Source of the DNA: an uncultured Chloroflexia bacterium | Lineage (GTDB): Bacteria; Chloroflexota; Anaerolineae; CG2-30-64-16 | Reading direction: 5' to 3' | Length of the DNA stretch: 64,000 nt | NCBI GenBank assembly: GCA_963810095.1 | Contig: CAWEMM010000012.1 | Location: forward strand, 192,001 to 256,000 | Shown: in pieces, positions 15,225 to 31,107 of the stretch | How the letters are laid out: every line of letters starts with the position of its first letter | Position numbering within the stretch: the first letter of the stretch is position 1 | Made by a program: the position numbers and the translations under genes | Notes under the pieces: generated by a model | The model's input: only the letters and a program-made list of their open reading frames with translations | What the model was told of the DNA's origin: nothing | Databases searched by the model: none

Positions 15225-15264
15225 GGTCCTAGCTTTGGTGCAGGGATCGACAGGAGGTGGATAC

Positions 15265-17016
15265 GTGGCGCGACCCCTAAACGACTCGATCTATCTCTAC
15301 GGCTTCCACGACCCGGGCGGGGAGCAGATCATGCTCGACGTCGGAATAACGGGTTGGCTCACCATCACTGAGGACATCGGCCACGATCCCAACGACCGCT
15401 CGGGCCGCGATTATCGAGCGTGGACCGACCGGGGCCTGGGCGTGATCGTGCGCCTCAACAACGGGTACAACCCAGCCGGCACCCTGCCCTTCGAGCGCTA
15501 TTACCCCGACTTTGCCCGGCGCTGCGCAAACTTCGTCGCCGCCTCTCAGGGCGCGCACCTGTGGATCATCGGCAACGAACCGAACCACCCAATCGAGTGG
15601 CCCGGCGCACAGTGGAACTGGGGACCGGGCTGGCCCGCGCCGGTCAGCCCCGATACGCGGGGCGAAGAGATTACTCCGACCCGCTACGCATCCTGCTTCA
15701 GGCAGTGCCGGGCGGCGATCAAGGCGATGAGCGGGCACGGGCAAGACCAGGTGCTGACCGCTCCCGCGGCGCCCTGGAACATCCTCCTGACCTACCCCAC
15801 CAACCCCGACGGGAACTGGATCACCTACTTTGCCGACATCCTCAGGCTGGTGGGGCCGGGCAACCTCGACGGCATCGTCGTCCACACATACACCCATGGC
15901 TCCGCGCCTTCGCTCATCGTCTCAGAGGAGAAGCTGAACGACCCCCGCTTCTCTAGCCTGCACTGGCAGTTTCGCGCATACCAGGACTTTATGAACGCCG
16001 TCCCTGCGGCCATGCGCGCGCTGCCCGTGTATATCACCGAGACGAACCAGGGCGACGAGCCGTGGCTGAACGCGAACAACGGCTGGGTGCGAGCCGCGTA
16101 TGCGGAGATCGACCGGTGGAACAGGTCGGGCAAGCAGGTCATCCGCTCGCTGTTGTTGTATCGCTGGCCCCAGGTGCCGGGCGACCGCTGGGGCATCGAG
16201 GGCAAGGCCGGCGTGATTGAGGACTTCAAGCAGGCACTCGGCCCTCGCTACCAGTGGGCGGCTTACGCTGGGGCTGAAGACCCGCTGGCCGCGCTCGGCC
16301 GCCGTGTCACGGCCCTCGAGCAGGCGGCGGCCGGTCTGAAGCCGCAAATCGACGGCGTGAAGAAGCTGGCGGCCGAGGCGTTGGCGCTCCGCAAGGAGGG
16401 CGAGGCCCTGGCGGGCCAGGCCGCGGCGGCAAAGACCGCCGAACTGCGCGGCCAGTTCGACGCGCTGGCGACCCAGATCAAGGCGCTCGAGGATGCGCTC
16501 AAACCCGCGCCGAGCGGGCCCAAGATCGTCGACAAGACCGGCAAGCTGGCGCACGGTCCGACGCCCTACCCCACCCGCGACCTGAGCGCAACCAAGCGGG
16601 TGGTCTTGCACCACACCGTGACGCCCGACAACATCACCCCCGAGCGCCTCGCGCAGGCCGCAGTGCAGCGCGGGCTGCCGGGCATAACCTATCACTACCT
16701 CATCACGGGCGATGGGACCATCTATGCCACTCAGCCGCTCGACGCCCGTATCAGCCAGACGAACCGCCAGAACGTCAACGCGGACGGCATTGGGATAGCG
16801 CTGGCCGGTAACTTCACGAACACGGTGCCCACTGAAGCCCAGATGCAGAGCGCCGCCGCACTGACCCGCAGTCTGCTCGACCGCTTCAACCTGCCCGTTT
16901 CGTCGGTGGTCGGCGCCCGCGAGGTCGCACAGACGGCCTCGCCCGGTAACCAGTGGCTGTCGGGCGCGAAGTACAAGAACGACTTGGTCGCCCGGATTAA
17001 TGCGCTGGGCAAGTGA
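15265..17016 (+). CDS. GH-A-like TIM barrel + coiled coil + degenerate Amidase_2 (PGRP-like) domain protein
   Basis: RBS AGGAGG then GTG; IIGNEPN, HTY and YITETN; C-terminal VLHHT, YHY, GIALAGNF, GAREV...SPG (Zn ligands altered). Confidence 0.75.
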   Translation: MARPLNDSIYLYGFHDPGGEQIMLDVGITGWLTITEDIGHDPNDRSGRDYRAWTDRGLGVIVRLNNGYNPAGTLPFERYYPDFARRCANFVAASQGAHLWIIGNEPNHPIEWPGAQWNWGPGWPAPVSPDTRGEEITPTRYASCFRQCRAAIKAMSGHGQDQVLTAPAAPWNILLTYPTNPDGNWITYFADILRLVGPGNLDGIVVHTYTHGSAPSLIVSEEKLNDPRFSSLHWQFRAYQDFMNAVPAAMRALPVYITETNQGDEPWLNANNGWVRAAYAEIDRWNRSGKQVIRSLLLYRWPQVPGDRWGIEGKAGVIEDFKQALGPRYQWAAYAGAEDPLAALGRRVTALEQAAAGLKPQIDGVKKLAAEALALRKEGEALAGQAAAAKTAELRGQFDALATQIKALEDALKPAPSGPKIVDKTGKLAHGPTPYPTRDLSATKRVVLHHTVTPDNITPERLAQAAVQRGLPGITYHYLITGDGTIYATQPLDARISQTNRQNVNADGIGIALAGNFTNTVPTEAQMQSAAALTRSLLDRFNLPVSSVVGAREVAQTASPGNQWLSGAKYKNDLVARINALGK

Positions 17017-17213: not shown

Positions 17214-18362
17214 GTGCCGAGGCCGGAGATCGTCGACAAGGTTGACCGGCTGGCGCGCCACCCCACGCTGCCGCCCTACAGCCCGCGCACCCGGCCCATC
17301 TCGATGATCGTCGTGCACCACACGGACACGCCGAAGACGACGACCGTCGAAAAGATCGCCGAATATCACGTCTTCGGCGAGCGCAAGGACGCGAAGGGTA
17401 ACGTGCTCAAGGCGCAGTGGCCGGGCATCGGCTACCACTTCGTGATCGGCGCGGACGGCGTCATCACGCAGGGCCAGCGCGAGGCGACTCGCTCCTATCA
17501 CGTGGGCGGCGACCCGAACGACTACAGCGTCGCGATCAGCTTGATCGGCCGGTTCATGCGCAAGAACTACGACGGCACGGACAGGGCGCCCGAGGACCAG
17601 GTGCCGACCCCCGCGCAGCTCAAGAGCGCGGGGCTGCTGGCGGCCTGGTTGATGCAGGAGTACGGCATCCGGCTCGACCAGGTTAAGGGTCACCGGGACG
17701 TGTGGCCCAAGTCGACCGTCTGCCCGGGCGAGCACTGGAAGACGGGGCTGAACTGGTACTCGACGCTGGTGCAGGAGATCGCGGCGGCGCAAGGTGTCGC
17801 GGGCAGCGGACCGGGGTCTCAGAGGATGCCGCTCTACCTGCTCTTCTGGGACCACGCGCCACAAACCGGTGGCGCTGCCTGGGCCGAGGGCGACTGGCGC
17901 AGCAGCCAGGCCTATATCGCCCGCTTCCGCCCGACCGCCGGCTTCTCCATCGACGACGCGCTGCTCGCCCGGCGGGTCGTCATCGTGGGCGGGCCGCTGG
18001 GCGTGTCGGCGCAGGACGAGGCCCGGCTCAAGACGGCCGGGGTGGAGGTGTACCGGCTGGCCGGCAAGGACGAGGCCGACACGAAGCGCATGCTGGACGA
18101 GTTGGCGCATCAGGGGACCCCGTGGCCCGGTGCGTCGCCGGTGGGACCGGTGCCCCGGGAACTGGGACAAGCAGAGGCTGCCGCGGACGAAGCGATTTTC
18201 CCTGACGAATGGACCATGCCCGACGACTGGACGGGACCGGAAGGGGCCGCCGCCCGGGACCGGGATGCGGCCGCGGCCCAGCCTCCGCCGATCCCCAAGG
18301 TCTTCGTCTCGCCGCCGGGCCAGGAACGACCGGTAACGGACGCCGGAGGCAGCCATGAATAA
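17214..18362 (+). CDS. N-acetylmuramoyl-L-alanine amidase (Amidase_2) with CW_binding_2-like C-terminal module
   Basis: VVHHT, WPGIGYHF, YHV, GHRD...CPG (intact His/His/Cys); VVIVGG...V...RLAGKD..DT. Confidence 0.85.
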   Translation: MPRPEIVDKVDRLARHPTLPPYSPRTRPISMIVVHHTDTPKTTTVEKIAEYHVFGERKDAKGNVLKAQWPGIGYHFVIGADGVITQGQREATRSYHVGGDPNDYSVAISLIGRFMRKNYDGTDRAPEDQVPTPAQLKSAGLLAAWLMQEYGIRLDQVKGHRDVWPKSTVCPGEHWKTGLNWYSTLVQEIAAAQGVAGSGPGSQRMPLYLLFWDHAPQTGGAAWAEGDWRSSQAYIARFRPTAGFSIDDALLARRVVIVGGPLGVSAQDEARLKTAGVEVYRLAGKDEADTKRMLDELAHQGTPWPGASPVGPVPRELGQAEAAADEAIFPDEWTMPDDWTGPEGAAARDRDAAAAQPPPIPKVFVSPPGQERPVTDAGGSHE

Positions 18363-20355
18363 GCTCGGCTTCTACGTGGAGAACACCACCGTGCCCTTCC
18401 TGCGCGACGCGTTCGTGAAGGTGAAGCCGCCCGTGCTGCTCATCCACGCCCAGGACCGCGGGCTGCTGCCGCGAAATCCGCAACACGCTGTCGCCCGACA
18501 CGTTTGTCATCGGCCGCATGTACGTCACGCCGGCCGAGCAGAGCGCGTGGCTCACCGGCGGCGACCCCGAGGGCGCGGGACGGGCCTTTGCCGAGCGCAT
18601 CATCAACTATGACTTCCAACTGGCCAAGGAGAAGGGCACGAACGGCCGGCTGCTGGTCGACGCGTGGATGAGCCTCAACGAGCCCGTCCGCGGTCCGGCC
18701 AGCTTTCCCGACGGGAATCCGGACGCCGAGACGCTGGCGCGCTACGACGCGCTCGACCGTTTCCAGGCCGCGTTCCTCGAACGGCTGCGGGCCGAAGGGC
18801 TGGAGGGCGTGGCCTTCAACTTCGCGGCCGGCAACTTCACCCGCAAGAACGATATCGTGCAGTACTTCCCGCGTACATTGGCCGCCTACACCTACCTGGG
18901 GCTGCATGAGTACGGCTGGCCCAACCTCATGCCGCGCGCCGACACGTCCTCGTCCGCGCTGACCTACCGGACCGTGATGGAAGGCATCCGGGAGCGCTAC
19001 GGGAACAGGCATAAGCTGATCATTACCGAAGCCGGGCTCGCTCGCATGTACCGCTACCCCAACGACCCGGCAGGCGACGTGGGTTGGCTGTACGGGGGAG
19101 AAACGATTTCCGAGGACCAGTACTGGCAGTCGCTGGCATGGTACAACAACCAGATGTTGCAGGACGACTACGTAATGGGAGCCAGCCTGTACCAGGTGGG
19201 GCACGGGGGGCGGTGGGAAACCTTCCGGCACCTGGGCGTGAACAACCAGGGCCAGCCGATCCTGCTGATGGACAAGATCGCCACCCTGAACTCGACCGCC
19301 GCGCCGCCGCCTCCCCCGGCCGAGCCGCCCCCAACGCCTGTTCCGCCGCCCGGCGACGAGCGGGCGAAGCTGCTGGCGCGCGTGCGAAGCCGTGCGGTCC
19401 GCAATGCAAGCTGCGGTTGCGGCGACCGACGCGTTCACGGCGGACCTGGCGAAGGCCCGCGCCGCCCTGGGACAGGCCAGCCAAGGCCTCTCTGCGGCCC
19501 CCACCCCCGAGGCCGTGCAGGCGCTGCTCGACCGCCTCACCGCGCTCGACGCCGCGCTCGCGGCCCTGCCGGCAGGATCGGCCGTAGACCCTGCACAACT
19601 GCGCGGGCAGATCGACGCGTTACGGCAGCAAACCAGCGCCCTGCTGGCCGCGGCGCGCAGCGTGGCCGGCCTGGGTGCGCAGGTCAAGGCGGCACAGGCC
19701 CGGCTGGCGGCATCTGACGCGAAGGCGGCGGAAGCGGCAAGGACGAAACAGGCGTCCAACCAGGTGCTCGGCCAGGCGAACACGCTCGCGGGCGAAATCC
19801 AGCCCGTGCCGCGCGCCCTTCCCGTCGGGCGGGGCCTGGAGGCGGCCGGGGAACCGGACGTGCAGGATGTCTCGGCGGCGCTGGCGGAGATCGTTCCAGA
19901 CCCCGGCCCGGCTCGTCCCTTGAGCGACGTCCGGCGCATCGTGATCCATCATACCGGCATGGCCGCAGATGCGACGCCGGAGGCGATCTTGCGCCGGACA
20001 GCAGGGCAGGGACGCCGCGGACTGCCCTATCACTACCTGGTCGACGGCGACGGGATGGTCTCGCAACTCGCCCCCCTGGATGTGGCGGTGAATCAATCGC
20101 GGCTCGCTGCGGTCGATGCGGATGCGATCGGGGTCACGCTGGGGGGCGACTTCGACCTGGCCGTCCCAACCGAGGCGCAGATGGCCGCTGCAGCCGAGCT
20201 GCTGGCCGGCCTGCTCCGCGATTTCGGGTTGGCCGTGAACGACATCTACGGCCGGAGCGAAACTGGAAGGGGGCGTCACCTCGCCCGGCCTGCAATGGAC
20301 GCAGGGCGTGCGCTGGGGCGACGACCTGAAGGCGCGTGTGGCAGCGATGGCCTAG
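18355..20355 (+). CDS. GH-A-like domain + coiled coil + degenerate Amidase_2 domain protein (frameshifts ~18470, ~19390, ~20265)
   Basis: Joined ORFs 18355, 18518 and 19392 plus a final frame TSPGLQWTQG...AAMA*; SLNEP, GLHEY, IITEAG; VIHHT, YHY, YGRSE..TSPG. Confidence 0.7.
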
Positions 20356-20440
20356 ACTGATCGCAACATGTGGTTGCACATGGCTTTTCCACTTTGCGAC
20401 TAAACGCTCACCCCGCTGCGGCGGACAACGCGGGACAAAA

Positions 20441-20531
20441 TAGGACACTGATTGGACCGATTTGACTGATTATCACGATCTTTTCCCGAAGGACTTGCGG
20501 ATCAGTTCAATCAGTTGCATCAGTGTCCCAT
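20441..20531. repeat. Family B element copy 2
   Basis: GGACACTGATT GGACCGATT TGACTGATT ... GATCAGTTC AATCAGTTG CATCAGTGTCC. Confidence 0.7.
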
Positions 20532-20578
20532 TTCGGATCGGTCCGGGAACGGGGGCAGGCATTCGGAGCTTTCGCGAT

Positions 20579-20606
20579 TTGACACCGCGCCAGACTCCTG
20601 TATAAT
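20579..20606 (+). promoter_or_regulatory. Sigma70-type promoter of the lys operon
   Basis: TTGACA (20579-84), 16-nt spacer, TATAAT (20601-06). Confidence 0.8.
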
Positions 20607-20636
20607 GCCGCCAACGTAACAAGGAATACATTACTC

Positions 20637-20711
20637 ATGATGCAACTGTCCAAGCGCTCCAAGTCCAAGAAGCCTTCCCTCGCCTGGGACGGCCGTTGGC
20701 GCTTGGGGTAG
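20637..20711 (+). CDS. Putative attenuator leader peptide 1 (MMQLSKRSKSKKPSLAWDGRWRLG)
   Basis: AAGGA upstream; 4 Lys codons clustered in KRSKSKK; followed by a terminator. Confidence 0.7.
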   Translation: MMQLSKRSKSKKPSLAWDGRWRLG

Positions 20712-20736
20712 CAGACAGACTGCCCCAGAAGTCCAA

Positions 20737-20779
20737 AAGCCCTGCCAGGCCGAAGTGCCAAAGGCAGGGTTTCTTTTTT
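20737..20779 (+). terminator. Attenuator terminator 1
   Basis: AAGCCCTGCC ... GGCAGGGTTT followed by CTTTTTT. Confidence 0.75.
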
Positions 20780-20832
20780 GTTCTCACCTGGCCGTCGCCA
20801 GGATGAGACCAAAAAGAAAACAGGAGAAACAC

Positions 20833-20898
20833 ATGCAGCTTAAGACAAAGCGCAGCGCGAAGCGGAACACCAGCTTGCCGGACCGGAGGTCTGGATAG
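20833..20898 (+). CDS. Putative attenuator leader peptide 2 (MQLKTKRSAKRNTSLPDRRSG)
   Basis: Strong RBS AGGAG at 20822; 3 Lys and 4 Arg codons; followed by a terminator. Confidence 0.7.
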   Translation: MQLKTKRSAKRNTSLPDRRSG

Positions 20899-20930
20899 GC
20901 CGTCTCCGCGCACCCATGCGTCGTGCATGC

Positions 20931-20969
20931 AGCCCCTTCCGCCCAGCCGGCGGAGGGGGCTTTTTATTT
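20931..20969 (+). terminator. Attenuator terminator 2
   Basis: 13-bp stem AGCCCCTTCCGCC/GGCGGAGGGGGCT followed by TTTTATTT, just upstream of the lysW RBS. Confidence 0.85.
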
Positions 20970-20994
20970 CATCTTTGATAAGGAGAATCCTACG

Positions 20995-21165
20995 ATGGTA
21001 CTCAATGCACTCTGTCCCGAATGTGAAGGCGAAATCGCCCTGCGCGACCCAATCATGGGCGAGATCGTCCCATGCGCCTCGTGTGGCGCCGACCTGGAAG
21101 TGATGTCGCTCGACCCGGTTCAGCTGGAACTGGCGCCGGAAGAGCAGGAGGACTGGGGCGAATGA
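20995..21165 (+). CDS. lysW: Amino-group carrier protein LysW
   Basis: RBS AAGGAG, CPEC...CASC zinc ribbon, C-terminal EDWGE. Confidence 0.95.
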
Positions 21166-22019
21166 CGCGCGTTACCGTGATTGCCTCCCGGATCCGAGTG
21201 GAGGAGAAGCTGCTGCTGCAGGCCCTGGAAGCGGCGGGTGCAGAGGTGAGCCTCGTGAACGACGACGAGATCATCTTCCCCGTCCCGGGTCAGGCGCCCT
21301 TCCAGGCCGACGTGGTGCTCGAACGCTCGCTCAGCGCGGCCCGCGGCATCTATGCCCTGCGCCTGCTGCAAGCGGCGGGCGTGCCCACCGTCAACCGCTA
21401 TGACACCGCCGCGACGTGCTGGGACAAGCTGCTGACCTCCGCGGCCCTGGCCCAGTGCGGCGTGCCCCAGCCCCGCATCCGTGTCGCCTTCACGAGCGAA
21501 TCGGCGCTGCAGGCCATCGAGGAGCTCGGCTACCCGGTCGTGCTCAAGCCGGTGGTCGGCTCGTGGGGGCGCCTGCTTGCCCGCATCAACGACCGGGACG
21601 CCGCGGAAGCCGTGCTGGAGCACAAGGAGACGCTCGGCTCCTACCAGCACAGCATCTTCTACATCCAGGAGTACGTCGCCAAACCGGGTCGCGACATTCG
21701 GGCCTTCGTGGTGGGCGACGACACCATCTCCGCGATCTACCGGGCATCGGGCCACTGGATCACGAACACGGCCCGGGGCGGCGCGGCCAGCAACTGCCCC
21801 GTCACGCCCGAGTTGGACGCGCTGTGCCGGCAGACGGCTCAGGCAGTCGGCGGGGGCGTGCTGGCGATCGACGTGCTGGAGGACCCGGACCGGGGCTTCC
21901 TGGTGAATGAGGTCAACCACACGATGGAGTTCCGTAACAGCATTCATACGACGGGCGTGGATATTCCGGCGGTGGTGGCACGCTACGTGGTTGGCTTGGC
22001 CGGCGTGAGCGAGCGCTAA
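21162..22019 (+). CDS. lysX: Alpha-aminoadipate--LysW ligase (RimK/ATP-grasp)
   Basis: ATGA overlap with lysW; [41 protein letters not shown]. Confidence 0.93.
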
Positions 22020-22115
22020 CACAAAGACGCAAAGACACAAGGACACGAAGGTTCACAAAGAACAGTACCTGAGGTCATCTTTGTGCGCCTTCGGTTCTTT
22101 GTGACTTTGTGTTGA
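22017..22115. repeat. Family A element copy 4
   Basis: TAACACAAAGACGCAAAGACACAAGGACACGAAG ... CTTCGGTTCTTTGTGACTTTGTGTTG. Confidence 0.8.
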
Positions 22116-22127
22116 AGGAGCATTCAC

Positions 22128-23204
22128 ATGACAGAAACTACGTTGGGAACGAGAATGAGTCAGGCAGCAGTGAGCGTGGTTGGCGGGTCGGGCTACGGCG
22201 GCGGCGAGCTGATCCGGCTGCTGCTTGGCCACCCCTGCGTCGACCTGGCGCAGGTCACGTCCGAGTCCCACGCGGGCGAGTTCGTCCACACGCTGCACCC
22301 CAACCTGCGCCCGTCGGGCCGCCGCGAGCCCATCCGCTTCACCAGCCTGGGCGAGTTGGGGCCGTGCGACGTGCTATTCCTGGCCCTCCCCCACGGCGAA
22401 GCGCAGCGCCGCATCGCCCACTTCGCCACCCTCGCCCCCCGCATCGTCGACCTCTCGGCCGACTTCCGCCTCTCCGACCTCGACCTTTACCGGCAGACGT
22501 ATGGCGCAGAGCACCTCGCCCCCCAGTTCGTGCCCGACTTCGCTTATGGCCTGCCCGAGGCCAACCGGGACGCGCTGCGCTCGGCCAGGTACGCCAGCGG
22601 CGTCGGGTGCAATGCGACGGCCGCAAACCTGGCGCTGCTGCCGCTCGTGCGAGCGGGCTTGCTGCGCACCGACCTGCCTGTGATCGTGGACGTGAAGGCC
22701 GGGTCGTCAGAGGGCGGCGCGAGCCACAGCGCGGCGAGCCATCACCCCGAACGGGCCGGTGCGATTCGCTCGTTCGCCCCGACCCGTCACCGCCACGAGG
22801 CGGAGGCCCGGCAGGTGCTCGGCCGGCCCGACGTCTACCTGTCCGTGACGTCCATCGAGCTCGTGCGGGGCGCGCTGGCGACGGCTCACGGCTGGGCCCG
22901 GCCGGGCACGACGGAAAAAGAAGTCTGGCGGGCCTACCGGGCCGCCTACGGCGCCGAGCCGTTCGTCCGCATTGTCCACGACCGCGGGGGCATCTACCGC
23001 CACCCCGAGCCGAAGCTGCTGGCCGGGACGAACCTGGCCGACGTCGGCTGGGAGCTGGACCAGTCGACTGGTCGCATCGTAGCCCTGGCCGCGATCGACA
23101 ACCTCGGCAAGGGCGCGGCCGGTACGGCCGTGCAGTGCATGAACCTGATGCTGGGCTGGGACGAAACCCTCGGCCTGGATGCGTGCGGGCTGCACCCGGT
23201 CTGA
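22128..23204 (+). CDS. lysY: LysW-gamma-aminoadipyl-phosphate reductase (ArgC family)
   Basis: GGSGYGGGE, DLSADFRL, GCNAT, HHPER, IDNLGKGAAG; operon context. Confidence 0.92.
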   Translation: MTETTLGTRMSQAAVSVVGGSGYGGGELIRLLLGHPCVDLAQVTSESHAGEFVHTLHPNLRPSGRREPIRFTSLGELGPCDVLFLALPHGEAQRRIAHFATLAPRIVDLSADFRLSDLDLYRQTYGAEHLAPQFVPDFAYGLPEANRDALRSARYASGVGCNATAANLALLPLVRAGLLRTDLPVIVDVKAGSSEGGASHSAASHHPERAGAIRSFAPTRHRHEAEARQVLGRPDVYLSVTSIELVRGALATAHGWARPGTTEKEVWRAYRAAYGAEPFVRIVHDRGGIYRHPEPKLLAGTNLADVGWELDQSTGRIVALAAIDNLGKGAAGTAVQCMNLMLGWDETLGLDACGLHPV

Positions 23205-23281
23205 TAACAGAAAGACAGAAAGACACGAAGCTTCGCAAGGCCATTTCCGACCTTTAGTGTCTTCGGTGCCTTTGTGGTGAA
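23205..23281. repeat. Family A element copy 5
   Basis: TAACAGAAAGACAGAAAGACACGAAG ... TGTCTTCGGTGCCTTTGTGGTGA. Confidence 0.75.
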
Positions 23282-23292
23282 AGGAAAGTGGA

Positions 23293-24174
23293 ATGAATCC
23301 GATAGTGATCAAGTTGGGCGGCGCGGCCGGGGTGTCCGTTGCCCCAGTGCTGGCTGACGTGGCATTCCTGGTCGCCAACGGACAGCCCGTCATCCTCGTG
23401 CATGGCACGTCGGCCGCGGCCGACGAACTGGCAGGACGGGTCGGTGTGCCAGTGCGACACATCACCTCGCCCTCGGGGCATGTCAGCCGCCATACCGACC
23501 CCGATATGCTGGAGCTGTACGTGATGGCCGCCGCGGGCGGCGTCAACAAGGCGTTGGTCGCCGAGCTGCAGCGGATGGGCTGCAACGCGCTCGGGCTTTC
23601 GGGGGTCGACGGCCGGCTGCTGGTCGCGCGGCGCAAGGACGCGGTGCGATCGGTCGAAGGTGGACGCCAGCGCATCGTCCGGGACGACTACACCGGGCAG
23701 ATCGAAGCGGCAAACGGCGACCTGCTCCGCCTGCTGCTGAGCGGGGGGATGACGCCGGTCGTCGCGCCGCTGGCGCTCGGGCTGGGCGGCGAGCGGCTCA
23801 ACGTCGACGGCGACCGGGCCGCGGCCATGATCGCCGGTGCGGTGGGGGCCGCTGCGCTGGTCATCCTCAGCAACGTGCCCGGCCTTCTGGCCGACTACCC
23901 GAGCGAGGCGAGCCTCGTGCGCCACGTCGCCGCCGAGCACCTGTACACGGTCGAGCACCTGGCGCAGGGACGGATGAAGAAGAAGCTGCTGGCGGCAAAG
24001 GAAGCGCTCGACCGCAATGTGCCCACGGTCGTCCTGGCCGACTCCCGCCGCGCGATGCCGGTCAGGGCCGCGCTGCGAGGCGAAGGGACCGTGATCGGGG
24101 AGCGGGGCGGGTTGGATCACGACGACGGGCTCCCGGCGGAGTTTTTCGCCGTGTCCCAAACGGTGGAGGTCTAG
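23293..24174 (+). CDS. lysZ: LysW-aminoadipate/glutamate kinase (ArgB family)
   Basis: VIKLGG, VHG, SPSG..SR.TD, LNVDGDRAAA, GRMKKK. Confidence 0.92.
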   Translation: MNPIVIKLGGAAGVSVAPVLADVAFLVANGQPVILVHGTSAAADELAGRVGVPVRHITSPSGHVSRHTDPDMLELYVMAAAGGVNKALVAELQRMGCNALGLSGVDGRLLVARRKDAVRSVEGGRQRIVRDDYTGQIEAANGDLLRLLLSGGMTPVVAPLALGLGGERLNVDGDRAAAMIAGAVGAAALVILSNVPGLLADYPSEASLVRHVAAEHLYTVEHLAQGRMKKKLLAAKEALDRNVPTVVLADSRRAMPVRAALRGEGTVIGERGGLDHDDGLPAEFFAVSQTVEV

Positions 24175-24175
24175 C

Positions 24176-25442
24176 ATGGGCGTACTCCTGGGCCTGGCGA
24201 AGACACCCGCTCAAATGGAGCGCCGGCCCTCCCCGGCAGCAGGCGGGGCAGCGGAACGCATCTTCACCGTGGAATCCGCATACACGTCCGGCCTTTACCC
24301 GAAGCGGCAGCTGGCTATCGTGCGGGGCGAAGGCGCGCACGTCTGGGACGCGGACGGGCACGAGTACATCGACTGCGTCGCGGGGCAGGGCTCGGCTAAC
24401 CTGGGCCACTGCCACCCGGCCATCGTTGCTGCCGTAACCGAGCAAGCCGGCCGGCTCATCACCTGCCCCGAGATCTTCTACAACGACGTCCGTGCGGCCC
24501 TGCTCCACCGCCTAAGCCTCGTCGCACCCGCGGGGCTGGACCGGGCGTTCCTCTGCAACTCGGGCACGGAGGCGGTGGAGGCAGCCATCAAGTTCGCCCG
24601 CGCCACCACGGGGCGGCCGGGCATCGTGGCCGCACGCAACGGCTTCCACGGCCGCACGATGGGCAGCCTCTCGGCCACGTGGAAGGAAGACTATCGCCGG
24701 CCGTTCGCACCCTTGGTGCCCTGCTTCTCGCACGTGCCCTTCGGCGACCTCCCGGCACTCGAATCTGCCGTGACGGACGAAACGGCTGCCGTGATCCTCG
24801 AGCCTGTCCAGGGTGAGGGTGGGGTCCACCCGGCAAGTGGCGAGTACCTGCGGGCCGCCGCGCAGCTCTGCCGCGAGCGGGGCGCACTGCTGATCCTGGA
24901 CGAGGTGCAGACAGGCTTCGGCCGCACGGGCAAGCTGTTTGCCTGCGAGCACTTCGGCGTGACGCCCGACCTCTTGGCCGTCGCCAAGTCGATGGCGGGC
25001 GGCCTGCCCATGGGCGCGTGCCTGATTGGGCCTGCGGTCGGCAAGCTGCCGCCCATGAGCCACGGCAGCACGTTCGGCGGCAACCCGCTCACCGCCGCGG
25101 CCGCGCTCGCCGCAATAACCGTTATGACAAGCCCCTACCCTACCCCGACGTCCGCCTACACGCTCGTGCAGCATGCGGGGCAATCGGGTCGCCGGCTGAT
25201 GGAAGGGCTGGCGGCCATCCGCTCGCCGCTGATCCGGGAAGTCCGCGGCCTGGGGCTGATGGTCGGCATCGAGCTTAAGGTGAAGGTCACGCCCGGTGCT
25301 GCAGCGCTTACAAGCGTTGGGAATCCTGGCCCTGCCCGCGGGTCTGACCGTGTTGCGGCTGCTGCCCCCGCTGGTCATCGGCGACGAGGACCTGGCCCGC
25401 GTCGTCGAGGCAGTTGAGGTAGCAACGGATGTCACGGATTAG
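24176..25442 (+). CDS. lysJ: LysW-aminoadipate-semialdehyde aminotransferase (ArgD family); frameshift ~25295
   Basis: NSGTEAVE, FHGRT, EPVQGEGG, DEVQTGFGRTG, AKS, STFGGNP; the other frame gives the canonical VLRLLPPL C-terminus. Confidence 0.9.
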
Positions 25443-25491
25443 CACGGATTTTTCTTCACCATCCTGCTAAGGCGCCAATCCGTGTAATCCG
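25421..25491. repeat. Family B-like element copy 3 (overlaps the lysJ stop)
   Basis: GCAACGGAT GTCACGGAT TAGCACGGATT ... AATCCGTGT AATCCG. Confidence 0.6.
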
Positions 25492-25509
25492 ATGCAAGAG
25501 GAGGTTCTT

Positions 25510-26661
25510 ATGTCCGTGGATCATTATTCCATCATCGATTCCACCCTGCGCGAAGGGGAGCAGTTCATTAATGCATCTTTTTCGACGGAGCAAAAGATCG
25601 CCATCGCCCATGCGCTCGACGAATTCGGCGTCGAGTACCTGGAACTCACGTCTCCCCAGGCGTCGCCGGGCAGCCTGGCCGACCTGCGAACGATTGCCGG
25701 CCTCGGGCTGCGCTCACGCATCCTGACCCACATCCGCTGCCACCGCGACGACGCCGCGGTCGCGCTCGACGCGGGCGTGGACGGCGTGGACGTGGTGATC
25801 GGAACCTCGTCCCGGCTGCGCCAGTTCAGCCACGGCAAGAGCATCGACGAGATCATCGCGATCGCAGGCGAGGTGCTGCCCTGGATCCGTGAGCAGGCGC
25901 CTGGCATCGAACTGCGTTTCAGCACCGAGGACTCGTTCCGCAGCGAGGAGGCCGAGCTGCTGCGGGTCTACCTGGCCGTCGACCGGCTGGGCGTCGTCAA
26001 CCGGCTCGGTATTGCCGACACAGTGGGCATCGCCACGCCCACGCAGGTGGGGCGCTTGGTGGGCACGCTGCGCCGCCTCACCCACTGCGACATCGAGTTC
26101 CACGGCCACAACGACGCGGGCTGCGCCATCGCCAACGCGTTTGCCGCGCTCGAAGCGGGCGCGACTCACATCGACACGACGGTGTTAGGCATTGGCGAGA
26201 GGAATGGGATCACCTCGCTGGGCGGCCTCATCGCCCGCATGGTGACGCTCGACCGGGGCGCGACGGCCGCCAAGTACCGCCTGGAGCGGCTGCGGCAGAT
26301 CGAGCTGCTGGTCGGCGAAATGGTCAACGTCGACATCCCCTTCAACAACTGCATCACCGGATTCAGCGCCTTCACACACAAGGCCGGCATCCATGCCAAG
26401 GCGATCCTCAACGCGCCCGAGACGTACGAGGCGCTCGATCCACACGACTTCGGGCTGACCCGCTACATCTCGATTGCCCACCGGCTGACGGGCTGGAACG
26501 CGGTGCGCGCCCGGGCCGACCAGTTGGGCCTGGCCCTGTCCGACGGCCATGTCAAGGCACTGACTCAGCACATCAAGGTATTGGCCGACGAGCGCGCGCT
26601 GACCCTCGACGACGTCGACAACCTCCTGCGCAACTGGGGCAACGGCAACGGGACGCATTGA
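25510..26661 (+). CDS. lysS: Homocitrate synthase
   Basis: [41 protein letters not shown]. Confidence 0.92.
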
Positions 26662-26716
26662 AACACAAAGACACCAGGACACAACGTTTTCGTTGTGTCT
26701 TTGTGCCTTTGTGTTA
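26661..26716. repeat. Family A element copy 6
   Basis: AACACAAAGACACCAGGACACAACG TTTT CGTTGTGTCTTTGTGCCTTTGTGTT. Confidence 0.8.
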
Positions 26717-26743
26717 CAAGGCGATCCCGCAAGGAGCAGAAAG

Positions 26744-28075
26744 ATGGGAGATACATTTGCGCAGAAGGCGCTGGCGCGGGCGGCCGGGCTGGAGCACGTC
26801 GTGGTGGGCCAGATCGTCGACGCCCGTCCCGACGTGATACTCAGCCACGATAACACCGCCGCCATTGCCCGCCTGTTCGCCACGCTGGGCCAGGCACGCG
26901 TCCTCCACCCCGAGCGGCTGGCGATTGTACTGGATCATGCCGTGCCGCCGCCCACCGCCGAGCATGCGCAGAACCACGCGGACGTGCGGCGTTTCGTCGA
27001 GGAACAGGGGATCGGGCGCCCGGGGGCGGGCCACTTCTACGACGCCGGCCGCGGCATCTGCCACCAGGTCGTCGGCGAGGACGCGCTCGATCCTGCCGGG
27101 CCAGACCATCCTCGGAGCCGACAGTCACACCACGCATCACGGCTGGCTGGGCGCCTTCGGCGCCGGCATCGGGCGCAGCGAGGTGGCCGCGCTGTGGGCC
27201 ACGGGCGAACTCTGGCTGCGGGTGCCCGAGACAATCCGTGTCGAGTTGACCGGCAGCCTGCGGCCCGGACTCACCGCGAAGGACCTGGGGCTGTGGCTGC
27301 TCCGACTGTTAGGGCCGGAGGCGGGCATCTACCGGGCCGTCGAGATCGGCGGGCCGGGCGTGGGCACCCTGTCCGTCGAGAGCCGCATGGTGCATCCCGA
27401 ACCTGCTGGCCGAGTCGGGCGCAAAGAACGCGTACGTGGAACCCGACGCGGCCGTGTTCGGCTGGCTGGCCGGGCGGCTGGCACGGCGCACGGGTGAGCC
27501 GGTGGCAGACTGCCGGCAGCCACATCGAGGCCGGCGCGCTCTACCCTGACCCGGACGCTGCCTACGAACGGAGGCACGTTGTGGACCTGGCCGCGCTCGA
27601 GCCCGTCGTCGCGGTCCCGCACAACCCGGCAAACATCGCGCCGCTCTCTGAGGTCGCCGGCGTGCCCGTCCAGCAGGCATTCATCGGCACCTGCACGAAC
27701 GGGCGGCTGGAAGACCTGGCCGCGGCCGCGGCCGTGCTGCGCGGGCCCGGCGGCCAGGTGCGCCAGGTTGCCCGGGGCACCCGGCTGGTCGTCATTCCCG
27801 CGTCGAGCGAAGTGCTGCAAGCCGCGCTGGCCGCGGGGTACGTGGAGACATTCCTCGCCGCGGGGGCCATGATCGGCGTCCCGGGCTGCGGTCCGTGCAT
27901 GGGCAACCACCTGGGCGTGCCGGCCGCCGGCGAGACCGTGATCAGCACGGCGAACCGCAACTTCAAAGGCCGCATGGGCAACCCGGCTGCGCGGATCTAC
28001 CTGGCCAGCCCCCAGGTCGTCGCCGCCAGCGCGGTCCTCGGCCGGATCGGCGACGTGCACGAGATAATGGACTAA
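26744..28075 (+). CDS. lysT: Homoaconitase large subunit (internal compensating frameshifts ~27090-27520)
   Basis: SHDN, LDH, GICHQ, GADSHT (other frame), [29 protein letters not shown]. Confidence 0.88.
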
Positions 28076-28155
28076 CAGGAAGAACCGAAGATACGAAGCG
28101 CCACAAAGATGACTTAACCGTTGTGAAACCTCGGTGTCTCCGGTTCTTCTTGTGA
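28073..28155. repeat. Family A element copy 7
   Basis: TAACAGGAAGAACCGAAGATACGAAG ... CTCGGTGTCTCCGGTTCTTCTTGTGA. Confidence 0.75.
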
Positions 28156-28177
28156 CTGGTCGACTAGGAGCACGCAA

Positions 28178-28756
28178 ATGGGACGAGCGTGGGTTTACGG
28201 CGATGACGTCAATACGGACGTGATCTTTCCGGGCAAGTACACCTATACGGTGAAAGACGAGACGGAGATGGCGCGGCACGCGCTGGAGGACCTCGACCCG
28301 ACTTTCGCCGGCGGAGTTCAGCCCGGCGACGTGATCGTCGCGGGCCGAAATTGGGGGTGTGGCAGCAGCCGTGAGCAGGCCGTGACGTGCTTGCGTTCTG
28401 CGGGAGTCCGTTTTATAATTGCGCAAAGTTTCGCAAGAATCTATTTCCGCAATGCCGTCAACAACGGCCTCCTCCCCATCGTCTGCCCGGAGGCGGTTGC
28501 GGCCATTCAGCCCGACGAGGCTGTGACCGTCGACCTGGTACGATGCGTGGTACGTTGCGCCAACGGCGCCTCTGCGGCGCAGGGATCTGCACCCCAGAGG
28601 GAGTTCCCTTTCTCTCCACTCTCCCCATCGGTCGCGGCCATTTTCCAGGCGGGCGGGCTTTTGCCCATGCTGCGGGCGCGCGTTTTGCCAGACGAGCGTG
28701 CTCTGCCAGGTGAGCGCGTCTTGCCGGACGCGCCCCTCTCGGAGGTTGCGAAATGA
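28178..28756 (+). CDS. lysU: Homoaconitase small subunit
   Basis: [37 protein letters not shown]. Confidence 0.9.
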
Positions 28757-29865
28757 CTACGATTTGCTTGATTCCCGGTGATGGCGTCGGCCGAGAGGTT
28801 GTTCCTGCGGCCGCGCAAACGGTTGCTATCGTTCTGCCCGGCGTTCGCTTCGTAACGGCACAGGCCGGGTGGGATTGCTTCGTGCGCACCGGCAACGCGC
28901 TCCCGGAAGAAACCCGGCGCGTCGTGGGGGCAGCCGATGCGACCCTCTTCGGCGCCACACAGTCGCCCACCACCGGCGCCGGGAGCGCACGCGACGCGTT
29001 GAACGACGGCACGCCCGCCGTTTACCGCAGCCCCATCCTGGCCCTGCGCAAGACGTTCGACCTCTACGCAAACCTGCGGCCTGCCGCTCCGCTCGTCCCC
29101 AACGGCAAGCCCATCGACCTGCTCATCGTGCGTGAGAATACCGAGGGCCTGTACAGCGGCCGCGAACGGCGGGACGGCGACACGGCCATTGCCGAGCGGG
29201 TCATTACACGGCAGGCCAGCGAGCGCATCGCCCGGGTTGCGTTTGAGCAGGCCCGCCGGCGAGCCGCGCTCCGCTCGTGTGCCGGCCGCTGCGGCAAGGT
29301 CACCATCGTCCACAAGGCTAACGTGCTGAAGATCACCGACGGGCTGTTCCGTGAAAGCTGCCTGGCCGTGGCCCGCCAATACCCCGACGTCGAGGTCGAC
29401 GAGATGCTGGTGGATGCGGCCGCGATGTGGCTCGTGCGCGACCCCTCTCGCTTCGACGTGCTCGTGACCACGAACTTGTTCGGCGACATCCTCTCGGACC
29501 TGGCCGCCGGGCTCGTGGGCGGGTTGGGCATCGCGCCGTCGGCCAACGTAGGTGCGGGCAAGGCCGCGGTGTTCGAGCCGGTGCACGGCAGCGCGCCCGA
29601 CATCGTGGGGCGCGGCGTGGCCAACCCCATCGGCGCGATGCTGAGCGCGGCGATGATGCTCGAACACATCGGCCAGGGCAGCGCGGCCGGCGCCTTGCGC
29701 CAGGCCGTTCGCGCCACGGTCAAGGGCGGCCTGACCACGCCCGACCTTGGCGGCATGGCAACCACGAGCCAGGTCACCGCGGCCGTATGCGATATCCTGC
29801 GCGCGATGGCCGCGCGGGGCGAGATCGGGTACGGCCCGAGCCTGAGCCTGGAGCGGAGCGTTTAG
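28753..29865 (+). CDS. Homoisocitrate dehydrogenase (isocitrate/isopropylmalate dehydrogenase family)
   Basis: [51 protein letters not shown]; operon context. Confidence 0.88.
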
Positions 29866-30003
29866 TGACGGGTTTTTGAGGGCGGCCCCGCCGGACCACC
29901 CTCTGGCACGTAATCCCGGTGTTGGGATGCTGATCAGCGCGGATCTCCCAGCGGTCGACGGTGCGTCGTTCGTTCGCCTTTGACCAGAGAGCGAGGTTCC
30001 CCC

Positions 30004-31107
30004 ATGTCAGCGTCCATCGAAGACACCACTGCCAGCGGCCTGGCGCTGCTGCGCGACCTGCTGGCAGTCCGGTCCCCATCCGGCCAGGAAATGCCGGCGG
30101 TAAACCACCTCGTCAAGTGGCTCGGCGGCCATGGGTTCATGGCCCACCGCGACACTGCGGGCAACGCCATCGGGGTCCTTGAAGCACCCGGGGCCGGCCC
30201 TACCAAAGAACTCATCCTCCTCGGTCACATCGACACGGTGCGCGGCTTCCCCAAGGTAATCGAACGCGACGGCAAGCTCTACGGCCGTGGCGCGGTCGAT
30301 GCAAAGGGCCCGCTGGTCGCGTTCGCCACGGCGGCCGCCGTGCTCGGCCCACAGCCTGGTTGGCGTATCGTCGTTGCCGGCGCCGTGGAAGAGGAGAGCA
30401 CGACCTCGAAGGGCGCCCGCCACCTCGCCCAGCGCCGCAAGCCCGATCTGTGCATCATCGGCGAGCCGACCGGCTGGCAGCGGGTGGCGCTCGGCTACAA
30501 GGGCCGCCTGCTGGCCGACGTCGAATTTCAGCGCATGGTCTCCCATACCGCGGGGCCTGCCGCGGCCGCGCCCGAGCTGGCGTTCGGTTACTGGCGCTGT
30601 GTGCAGGACCTGGTGGACGAGCTGAACACGGGCCGCGAGCGCTCGTGGGAGCAGGTGCAGGCGTCCTTGCGCCACTTCACCTCGGGCGACGACGGCATGC
30701 TGCAGACCGCCGAGATCCGCATGGGCTTTCGCCTGCCGCTGAGCGTGGGGCCGGAAGTGATGAAACGGCTGTTGGTCAGCGCCGACGGCATCGGCACCTT
30801 CCGCTTCAGCGGGGAGGAAGCCGCCTACCGGGCAGAGAAGAACACACCCCTCGTGCGAGCGTTCGTCTCGGCCGTGCGCGCCTACGGCGGCGAGCCCAGT
30901 TTCCTCAACAAGACGGGCACGAGCGACATGAACGTCGTCGGCCCGGCCTGGGGCTGCCCCATCCTGGCTTACGGGCCGGGCGACAGCAGCCTGGACCACA
31001 CGCCCGAGGAACACGTGGAGATCGAGGAGTGGGTCCGCGGCGTGGCGGTGCTGGTCGACGCGCTGCGGAGGCTGACAGGCAGCCCGGTGGGAAGCCAGCA
31101 AGACTGA
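30004..31107 (+). CDS. lysK: [LysW]-lysine/ornithine hydrolase (M20 family)
   Basis: LGHIDTV, GRGAVDAKG, VEEE, GEP, KTGTSDMN, YGPGDSSLDHTP.E. Confidence 0.92.
   Translation: MSASIEDTTASGLALLRDLLAVRSPSGQEMPAVNHLVKWLGGHGFMAHRDTAGNAIGVLEAPGAGPTKELILLGHIDTVRGFPKVIERDGKLYGRGAVDAKGPLVAFATAAAVLGPQPGWRIVVAGAVEEESTTSKGARHLAQRRKPDLCIIGEPTGWQRVALGYKGRLLADVEFQRMVSHTAGPAAAAPELAFGYWRCVQDLVDELNTGRERSWEQVQASLRHFTSGDDGMLQTAEIRMGFRLPLSVGPEVMKRLLVSADGIGTFRFSGEEAAYRAEKNTPLVRAFVSAVRAYGGEPSFLNKTGTSDMNVVGPAWGCPILAYGPGDSSLDHTPEEHVEIEEWVRGVAVLVDALRRLTGSPVGSQQD

Follow-up and report, generated by a model that had tools for sequence, protein, structure and literature searches.

Upstream of the lysW-led lysine operon of an uncultured Chloroflexia bacterium lies a leader region with two short upstream open reading frames (uORFs), each containing a cluster of lysine codons and each followed by an intrinsic terminator. 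We analysed this region within a 64,000-nt stretch of contig CAWEMM010000012.1 (positions 192,001 to 256,000; hereafter the window, whose own numbering is used for all coordinates unless a related locus is named). The elements follow one another in the order promoter, uORF1, terminator 1, uORF2, terminator 2 and lysW, and they fall into two similar units, each comprising a uORF, the RNA helices around it and its terminator. We consider it likely that these are two complete ribosome-mediated transcription attenuators in series, served by one promoter and both reading lysyl-tRNA via AAG codons. The elements of the leader and the operon behind it are the following.

20579-20606, + strand: sigma-70-type promoter, TTGACA-16-TATAAT, 12 of 12 consensus matches
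20621-20625, + strand: Shine-Dalgarno-like AAGGA before uORF1, from reading of the sequence
20637-20711, + strand: uORF1, 24-codon leader peptide MMQLSKRSKSKKPSLAWDGRWRLG
20652-54, 20661-63, 20667-69 and 20670-72, + strand: uORF1 Lys codons, all AAG
20658-20707, + strand: unit 1 protector (1:2), RNAalifold consensus, overlapping the Lys codons
20682-20750, + strand: unit 1 antiterminator (2:3), 20682-20693 pairing with the terminator 1 5′ arm 20739-20750
20739-20779, + strand: terminator 1, stem 20739-46/20763-70 and T-run 20770-79 (TTTCTTTTTT), −17.5 kcal/mol
20822-20826, + strand: Shine-Dalgarno-like AGGAG before uORF2
20833-20898, + strand: uORF2, 21-codon leader peptide MQLKTKRSAKRNTSLPDRRSG
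20842-44, 20848-50 and 20860-62, + strand: uORF2 Lys codons
20851-53 (CGC) and 20863-65 (CGG), + strand: uORF2 Arg codons
20852-20930, + strand: unit 2 protector, 20852-20866 pairing with 20905-20930 and enclosing the hairpin 20878-83/20889-94, in the minimum free energy fold of the window sequence
20931-20971, + strand: terminator 2, stem-loop 20931-20961 with 13 pairs, then TTTTATTTCA, −26.4 kcal/mol
20995-31107, + strand: lysW-led ten-gene operon, identified with NCBIfam

The original prediction, made from the letters of the window, had named the consensus promoter, both uORFs and both terminators, and all of them were found in place; the one correction is to the start of lysW, whose first base is 20995 rather than 20996. 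By gene content, the operon is a complete aminoadipate/LysW route to lysine, with lysW, lysX, lysY (argC-like), lysZ and lysJ followed by the genes for homocitrate synthase, the large and small subunits of homoaconitase, homoisocitrate dehydrogenase and lysK. LysW (TIGR01206, 71 bits), LysX (TIGR02144, 343 bits), homocitrate synthase (TIGR02146, 446 bits) and [LysW]-lysine hydrolase (NF003367, 375 bits) scored at or above the curated NCBIfam cut-offs, as did [LysW]-aminoadipate kinase (NF010659, 324 bits for a cut-off of 223), and the other genes of the operon matched related NCBIfam models.

LysX is well conserved, and its use as a query against species-representative genomes returned 80 loci (denoted by L numbers below), in 74 of which lysW stands beside lysX, and K-containing small open reading frames were listed in the 700 nt upstream of lysW. 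Covariance models made from trimmed alignments of unit 1 (A3) and unit 2 (A4) were then searched over the window and the 80 loci. The unit 1 model matched the window and 12 loci at 90–128 bits, including L007, and the unit 2 model matched the window and 11 loci at 95–127 bits, including L004, both of these loci having been outside the respective training set; among the other 68 loci the best score of either model was 32 bits. A match of the unit 2 model at L056 was rejected as a false positive, being the C-terminal coding part of a larger open reading frame, and a strict gap-free helix search on the alignments missed bulged helices and returned fragments only. Strong matches were confined to the region upstream of lysW and to one clade: the 13 loci carrying the units form exactly one LysX clade (Shimodaira–Hasegawa-like approximate likelihood ratio test, SH-aLRT, support 99; tree of 81 sequences), whose records are labelled Anaerolineae, Caldilineales or Chloroflexota. 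The 12 members besides the window are its closest species-level relatives. Of the 13, all but L013, which is without uORF2, carry the complete pair ahead of lysW in unchanged order, both units retaining the uORF with its Lys codons, the protector helix and the terminator, and the two terminators recur with recognisably the same stems. The comparison of lysW upstream regions that had been proposed as a check thus showed the uORF pair and covarying stems kept across the clade, and by these alignments at least 13 Chloroflexota species share the doubled leader as a retained character.

The promoter at 20579-20606 was the only promoter-like site found by the promoter scan in 20200-21200 (mean in shuffles, 0.4). 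The internal promoter that the original prediction had named as a challenge to serial attenuation therefore did not appear there. TTGACA-16-TATAAT or TAAAAT also precedes unit 1 in L001, L011 and L034 by the same scan, and in the remaining relatives a promoter upstream of unit 1 was seen by eye. Between the units, the scan found no promoter-like site on the + strand of the window, L001, L011 or L034; in L006 the distance from the first T-run to the uORF2 start is 23 nt. This absence, together with the gap of 33 nt between the second T-run and lysW in the window, supports the placement of both units on one transcript ahead of the LysW-type lysine operon. Serial arrangement, as first proposed, thus agrees with the retention of both units in 12 of 13 clade members and with the lack of a promoter-like site between them.

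The lysine clusters are out of proportion to the composition of the operon, in which lysine accounts for 1.75% of codons (56 of 3191, 49 of them AAG). By composition, four lysines in seven codons, as in unit 1, have P ~3e-6, and three in seven, as in unit 2, P ~2e-4. Each unit folds better than 200 of 200 dinucleotide shuffles (z = −3.97 and −4.21). A detector of K-rich uORFs ending no more than 90 nt from a hairpin plus T-run fired in 17 of 75 lysW upstream regions versus 2 of 75 reverse complements.

Within unit 1, the in-frame start of uORF1 is kept in all 13 clade members, as ATG in 11 and as GTG in L004 and L013, where the nearest relatives have ATG at the same place. In 11 of 12 sequences the stop codons, which include TAG, TAA and TGA, share one alignment column. 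In L001, a 4-nt insertion shifts the frame and brings the stop forward with the downstream RNA sequence still conserved, indicating that the tail of the peptide is irrelevant and that the RNA matters. From the start to the first Lys codon there are 6–12 codons, free in sequence and length and always open, and the four AAG columns that follow are invariant except for the third, which is AAC in 4 of 12 (peptides of relatives include MSHSLLSKCSKSKKLSLACRDGDLCLG and MNFLLTVVKCSKSNKPSHAWDGLLRLG). The consensus protector consists of an outer helix, 20658-64/20701-07, and an inner helix, 20672-79/20686-93, and the 5′ sides of these helices are formed by the run of Lys codons and the codons directly following it. 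The original prediction had paired CCAAGCGC (20650-57) with GCGCTTGG (20699-706); these two segments are indeed complementary, but the register kept in relatives is a different one, that of the outer helix. For protector and terminator 1 taken together, 98% of alignment cells were paired versus 34–57% with the partners slid, five pairs showed compensatory changes, and the covariation score was reached by none of 500 shuffles. Terminator 1 itself is present in all 12 relatives with compensatory changes in three of its eight stem pairs; its loop exceeds the limit of the general terminator scan, and the stem was found by a separate script.

Masking of the Lys-codon region exposed an alternative to this terminator. 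When the mask extended to 12 nt beyond the last Lys codon and the transcript ended ahead of the terminator 3′ arm, every one of the 12 unit 1 sequences formed the antiterminator, in which CCUGG(GA.GGC or CAGGG) pairs with the terminator 1 5′ arm GCCCUGCCAGG. As a fixed structure, this antiterminator had 97.5% of cells paired versus 17–57% slid, and two compensatory pairs, in L019 and L034, with the terminator 3′ arm of L019 changed in step. A middle helix UUGUGC/GCACAA, seen in single-sequence folds of the antiterminator, was left uncounted, its alignment register varying between sequences. The check by folding that had been suggested thus yielded, for unit 1, a stall-favoured and covarying alternative in every sequence. 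The folds are mutually exclusive: 20686-93 can pair with the Lys-codon strand or with the terminator but not with both, and 20739-46 has the same choice between those nucleotides and 20763-70. In these models, unit 1 is the classical 1:2, 2:3, 3:4 arrangement.

The same features bear on whether a ribosome reads the leader at all. If the elements were instead structured RNAs to which lysine or a protein regulator binds directly, as in a riboswitch or a PyrR- or TRAP-like target, and the open frames a by-product, one would likewise expect RNA conservation downstream of the Lys codons, some relatives could do without a Shine-Dalgarno-like site, and the exclusive use of AAG, with AAA never in its place, would be accommodated. 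That exclusive use is unremarkable, since 49 of the 56 Lys codons of the operon are AAG. Against such RNAs speak a start codon that persists even where ATG and GTG replace one another, a stop whose position is constant although all three stop codons are used, a start-to-Lys stretch that varies freely yet always stays open, and the placement of the Lys codons precisely on the strand that has to be masked to release the antiterminator. Nor did the window and 40 other loci match any Rfam family, lysine riboswitch and T-box included. The whole window gave no Rfam match at gathering score, the 40 related loci gave nothing usable, and at E (expectation value) up to 10 no lysine riboswitch and no T-box appeared in 20300-21100. 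Low-scoring microRNA, small RNA and Phe_leader rows were dismissed as noise, the Phe_leader row having 17 bits on the wrong strand, and the uORF1 and uORF2 peptides matched no family in NCBIfam or Pfam at E up to 10. We hold an element that is not read by ribosomes to be most improbable.

Unit 2 is built on the same plan. A uORF2 orthologue with the core K-R-x-K-K-Q ... P-D-x-x-S-G occurs in 12 of 13 clade members and is missing in L013 (peptides of relatives include MAVHIRLIKRAKKQVISLPDWRSG and MSHLTKRAKKQFLIPPDRRSE), and its AAG codons occupy three invariant columns. The window departs from this core in having CGG (Arg) for the second K of the KK pair and one additional codon in the frame. 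In L004, an 81-nt insertion, in frame and stop-free, extends the leader open reading frame from 24 to 51 codons; this insertion (within L004 467-726) has its own hairpin and T-run. The consensus elements of unit 2 are a GCGC-GCGC helix, an AAGCAG-CUGCUU helix over the Lys codons, a stop-adjacent hairpin (in the window the enclosed hairpin 20878-83/20889-94, which adjoins the stop codon) and the terminator. Consensus helices and terminator 2 together had 88% of cells paired versus 31–44% slid, with five compensatory pairs, including a hairpin G-C changed to A-U in four sequences and a G-C in the window where relatives have A-U. Terminator 2 is kept in all 12 relatives, L013 included. In that locus (L013 185-274), the uORF2 part is deleted and terminator 2 is retained 90 nt after terminator 1; the contig is 3.6 kb long, and an assembly error is possible for the loss of uORF2. 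A single consensus antiterminator for unit 2 was sought with RNAalifold and discarded: only three shared pairs (GGC/GCC) emerged, and the longer pairings differ between sub-lineages.

In the mechanism that we propose, a leader of ~390 nt from one promoter would carry two attenuators in series, each using the AAG codons of its short leader open reading frame to gauge how much charged lysyl-tRNA is available. With plentiful lysine, a ribosome would cross uORF1, the protector helices or the ribosome itself would occupy 20682-93, terminator 1 would form, and transcription would end near 20779. With scarce lysyl-tRNA, the ribosome would stall on the K-S-K-K codons and cover the protector 5′ strands, and the freed 20682-93 would pair with the terminator 1 5′ arm, allowing RNA polymerase to read on. 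Read-through transcripts would face the same kind of test at unit 2 before lysW. Operon output would then be approximately the product of two read-through probabilities, which predicts a lower basal level and a steeper, wider lysine response than one attenuator would give.

We modelled the effect of ribosome position by moving a footprint from −15 to +14 around the A site along each uORF and recording the energy gained when the terminator 3′ arm may pair. In 12 of 12 unit 1 sequences, this terminator gain was smallest with the A site on the second to third Lys codons; in the window it was −5 to −6 kcal/mol at the Lys codons versus about −18 kcal/mol further downstream. In unit 2, 10 of 11 sequences, all of them relatives, showed a 5–11 kcal/mol dip from the last Lys codon to two codons beyond. 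In truncated transcripts, the terminator 2 5′ arm was paired with a probability of 0.57–0.89 with the ribosome at Lys versus 0.11–0.35 with the ribosome at the stop in 11 of 11 sequences, and a three-state comparison favoured the model for unit 2 in 10 of 11. Overall, the evidence strongly supports the attenuator mechanism for unit 1 and supports it for unit 2 in the relatives.

Several results of the same modelling weigh against two attenuators in series in this genome. The assumed footprint and the energy model are rough. In the window, the unit 2 scan was flat, at −25 to −27 kcal/mol for every ribosome position, the free, stalled and at-stop states were indistinguishable, and the usual KK pair is replaced by K-R. 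In the unit 2 relatives, the largest effect fell one to two codons after the last Lys codon and not on Lys. For unit 1, the stalled state was less terminator-favourable than the at-stop state in only 9 of 12 sequences, and pairing probabilities differed little between the two states. Minimum-energy folds of masked full units still had the terminator as the best structure in most cases; with equilibrium folds mostly keeping the terminator, the switch must be kinetic, as in known attenuators. To these are added the absence of a Shine-Dalgarno-like site before the uORFs of several relatives and the derivation of all relatives from metagenome-assembled genomes.

Folding of window unit 2 thus returned no stall-dependent alternative, contrary to what the original prediction would lead one to expect; of the three measures, only the pairing probability in the truncated transcript moved there (0.57 stalled versus 0.12 at the stop), the other two being flat. 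This raises the question of whether only unit 1 regulates, with unit 2 of the window a decaying copy and terminator 2 a fixed, leaky and lysine-blind damper. The flat scan without any difference among three states would fit such decay, as would the change of KK to K-R with an inserted codon, and L013, which keeps terminator 2 without uORF2, suggests that a bare second terminator is tolerated in the clade. A decaying copy would not, in contrast, be expected to retain the start codon of uORF2, its strong AGGAG site, the three AAG codons and the conserved stop position, or a protector whose register matches that of the relatives and includes one compensatory G-C. Leaving a 13-bp terminator unregulated 33 nt ahead of an essential biosynthetic operon would also be costly, and the stall-dependent alternative is found in 10 of 11 unit 2 orthologues. 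On balance, regulation by unit 1 alone seems unlikely, and we retain two lysine attenuators in series as the preferred account.

How the two units arose can be read in part from their similarity. Each covariance model matched the other unit weakly and over its full length (E from 4e-5 to 0.3). A tree built from 33 units unites the 13 unit 1 copies in one clade (100/99) and groups unit 2 with single Lys leaders upstream of lysW in more distant Chloroflexota (L025, L027, L033, L038 and L070), whose peptides end in K-K-P-D-x-x-S-G. Branching agrees within the two unit clades, for instance in joining L002 with L004 and L005 with L010, which fits a duplication before the clade diversified. The original prediction had suggested duplication from the shared peptide motifs MQL and KRS; these motifs are not kept in relatives, the N-termini being free, and are coincidental, but the cross-matches of the models indicate that the two units are probably related, as paralogues. 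Unit 2 is probably the orthologue of the single Chloroflexota Lys leader and unit 1 an older, diverged extra copy dating from the base of the clade.

Further arrangements of such leaders were seen outside this pattern. L062 (1567-1873; labelled Ardenticatenaceae, outside the main clade) has tandem Lys leaders, MSFSTPKRKKMSQPATWSG and ...TKKMKKMSPDRGSG..., upstream of lysW. Its units fall among the single leaders in the tree, where they are not sisters, and share a motif that the main clade lacks, which suggests a second, independent doubling. In L007 (968-1920), a LysE-family translocator gene (1123-1746, Pfam PF01810) lies between the two units, the unit 1 uORF with its terminator beginning the series (uORF 968-1049), unit 2 following the gene (1799-1920) and lysW starting at 1992. 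Induction of an exporter type by lysine shortage would be counter-intuitive, and this LysE-family protein may import lysine or move another compound. In L055 (800-1600), a LysE-family gene that is orthologous to that of L007 (47% identity) is preceded, 2 kb upstream of lysW, by one short Lys leader, MQVFINKQVKRAKKPDHRSG, which has a TTGACA-type promoter and a terminator of its own; a leader directly before lysW was not detected at L055. Unit 1 of L007 and the single leader of L055, each standing before a transporter gene, suggest that one unit is enough in front of a gene. L046 and L077, labelled Acidobacteria and Thermoanaerobaculia, have a K/R-containing uORF, ...RKVRVKGAKRPADTPG, and a terminator ~60–240 nt upstream of lysW, so Lys leaders may extend beyond Chloroflexota. 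In L020 and L023, a uORF that contains several Arg codons but few for Lys, ...LKRARRSPKPDTAFG..., and a terminator lie ~60–215 nt upstream of lysW; these uORF regions match the unit 1 model weakly (E 0.08 and 0.47).

Arginine was part of the original prediction, which had offered an AND gate responding to limitation of both lysine and arginine. LysW-pathway enzymes serve both lysine and arginine/ornithine synthesis in some archaea, and a gate of this kind would have unit 1 sense lysine and unit 2 sense lysine plus arginine, or mainly arginine in this genome. CGC follows the first unit 2 Lys codon in 10 of 11 aligned sequences, and the second Arg codon of the window, CGG, stands where relatives have Lys; the latter is the only hint in favour of the gate. 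Arginine, however, makes up 8.3% of the operon codons, with CGC and CGG the commonest Arg codons, so the Arg residues are unremarkable and carry no weight. The conserved CGC of unit 2 lies within the GCGC segment that pairs with a downstream GCGC, so RNA structure explains its retention, and unit 1 has no conserved Arg codon. The enzymes also argue for lysine: the kinase scored 324 against a cut-off of 223 with the Lys-specific model and remained below the cut-offs of the bifunctional models (167 versus 194 and 142 versus 241), and the hydrolase reaches the [LysW]-lysine hydrolase cut-off. No arginine genes were found by Pfam near the operon among 40 open reading frames scanned in the window, a span of 64 kb from which the whole genome may differ. 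With only lysine enriched as a conserved cluster in both units, a gate for lysine and arginine is not supported, and we judge it very doubtful.

A related possibility would give the doubling itself a purpose, as an evolved two-stage gate assembled from portable modules, such as the unit 1 that would by itself control the LysE-family gene of L007, and built at least twice independently, in the main clade and in L062. Stage 2 of the window would then have been retuned to a second input, such as arginyl-tRNA or the general translation rate, through the change of K-K to K-R and the loss of the Lys-stall antiterminator. Such retuning would make the leader a natural AND gate composed of two classical attenuators; we regard it as quite improbable, and two units that both respond to lysine remain our preferred interpretation.

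The surroundings of the leader offered a few further observations. The gene just upstream (19392-20360) contains an amidase domain by Pfam and is unrelated to the lysine operon. Three N-acetylmuramoyl-L-alanine amidase-domain open reading frames succeed one another on the + strand upstream of the leader (15235-17013, 17214-18359 and 19392-20357). At 20438-20533, 45–140 nt upstream of the promoter, lies a CTGAT-rich inverted repeat with 33-nt arms that are 79% complementary, and a comparable CTGAT-rich repeat was seen by eye at the same place in L011. The repeat may serve to bind a regulator or may represent a small mobile element.

Among known systems, the closest in pathway is the lysine cluster of Thermus thermophilus, which reportedly (J Biol Chem, 2005) is controlled by a single attenuator with a Lys-codon leader peptide; that leader is said to precede the homocitrate synthase end of the cluster and not lysW. 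By this description, the Thermus leader shares the pathway type, the Lys-codon peptide and the terminator, and is single where the present one is double. A search of open-access papers and bioRxiv, with subscription journals largely outside its reach, yielded no account of a leader peptide ahead of lysW or associated with lysine genes in Chloroflexota. The lysine riboswitch (L-box, Rfam RF00168) performs the same task of turning lysine genes off when lysine is plentiful, often by termination, but by a different mechanism. Serial control is familiar from tandem thiamine pyrophosphate riboswitches in Bacillus anthracis and from multiple T-boxes before thrZ in B. subtilis. Such tandem riboswitches and T-boxes are likewise serial units of sensor and terminator from which a multiplied, sharper response is expected; their sensor is an aptamer or a tRNA-binding RNA, whereas a translating ribosome is proposed here. 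A tandem pair for S-adenosylmethionine and B12 at metE is also mentioned in PMC3641672.

That paper describes the nearest precedent for two uORFs in one leader. The Salmonella mgtCBR leader has two uORFs forming tandem attenuators, mgtM responding to ATP and mgtP to proline (Lee and Groisman 2012, PMC3641672), with stem-loops unlike intrinsic terminators, and the authors call it "a singular example" (PMC3641672). The likeness consists of two short open reading frames per leader, translated in mgtCBR and predicted to be translated here, with independent control of elongation. The mgtCBR signals differ from each other and the genes are not biosynthetic for the sensed amino acid, whereas here the signal would be lysine in both cases, the terminators are intrinsic and the units resemble paralogues. 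An mgtCBR-type leader combines two signals without intrinsic terminators; in the leader studied here, both uORFs carry Lys codons and each has an intrinsic terminator. No natural tandem of classical attenuators besides mgtCBR was found in open-access papers or bioRxiv. The original prediction knew of no described tandem leader-peptide attenuator; a uORF tandem has in fact been published (PMC3641672), but a terminator-type pair for the same amino acid was not found in open-access papers or bioRxiv.

Serial terminator-type attenuators for the same amino acid would be a natural test bed for a multiplied response that is tighter in the off state and sharper, an idea of serial multiplication worked out before for tandem riboswitches and synthetic tandem attenuators. 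The lysine leaders of Chloroflexota, in single, double and transporter-linked forms, would constitute an RNA family absent from Rfam, which would aid the annotation of mostly uncultured genomes by pointing to lysine-starvation response genes. With the trp, his, leu, thr, ilv and pheA attenuators of Proteobacteria, the present leader shares the leader open reading frame with pathway codons, the protector, antiterminator and terminator, and a fold that would be decided by the ribosome; unit 1 has all four of these classical elements, as does unit 2 in the relatives. Unlike those attenuators, it belongs to no Rfam leader family, serves lysine by the aminoadipate route in Chloroflexota and has two units in series. 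The best reading is therefore a doubled form of this textbook device, with two paralogous lysine-sensing leader attenuators.

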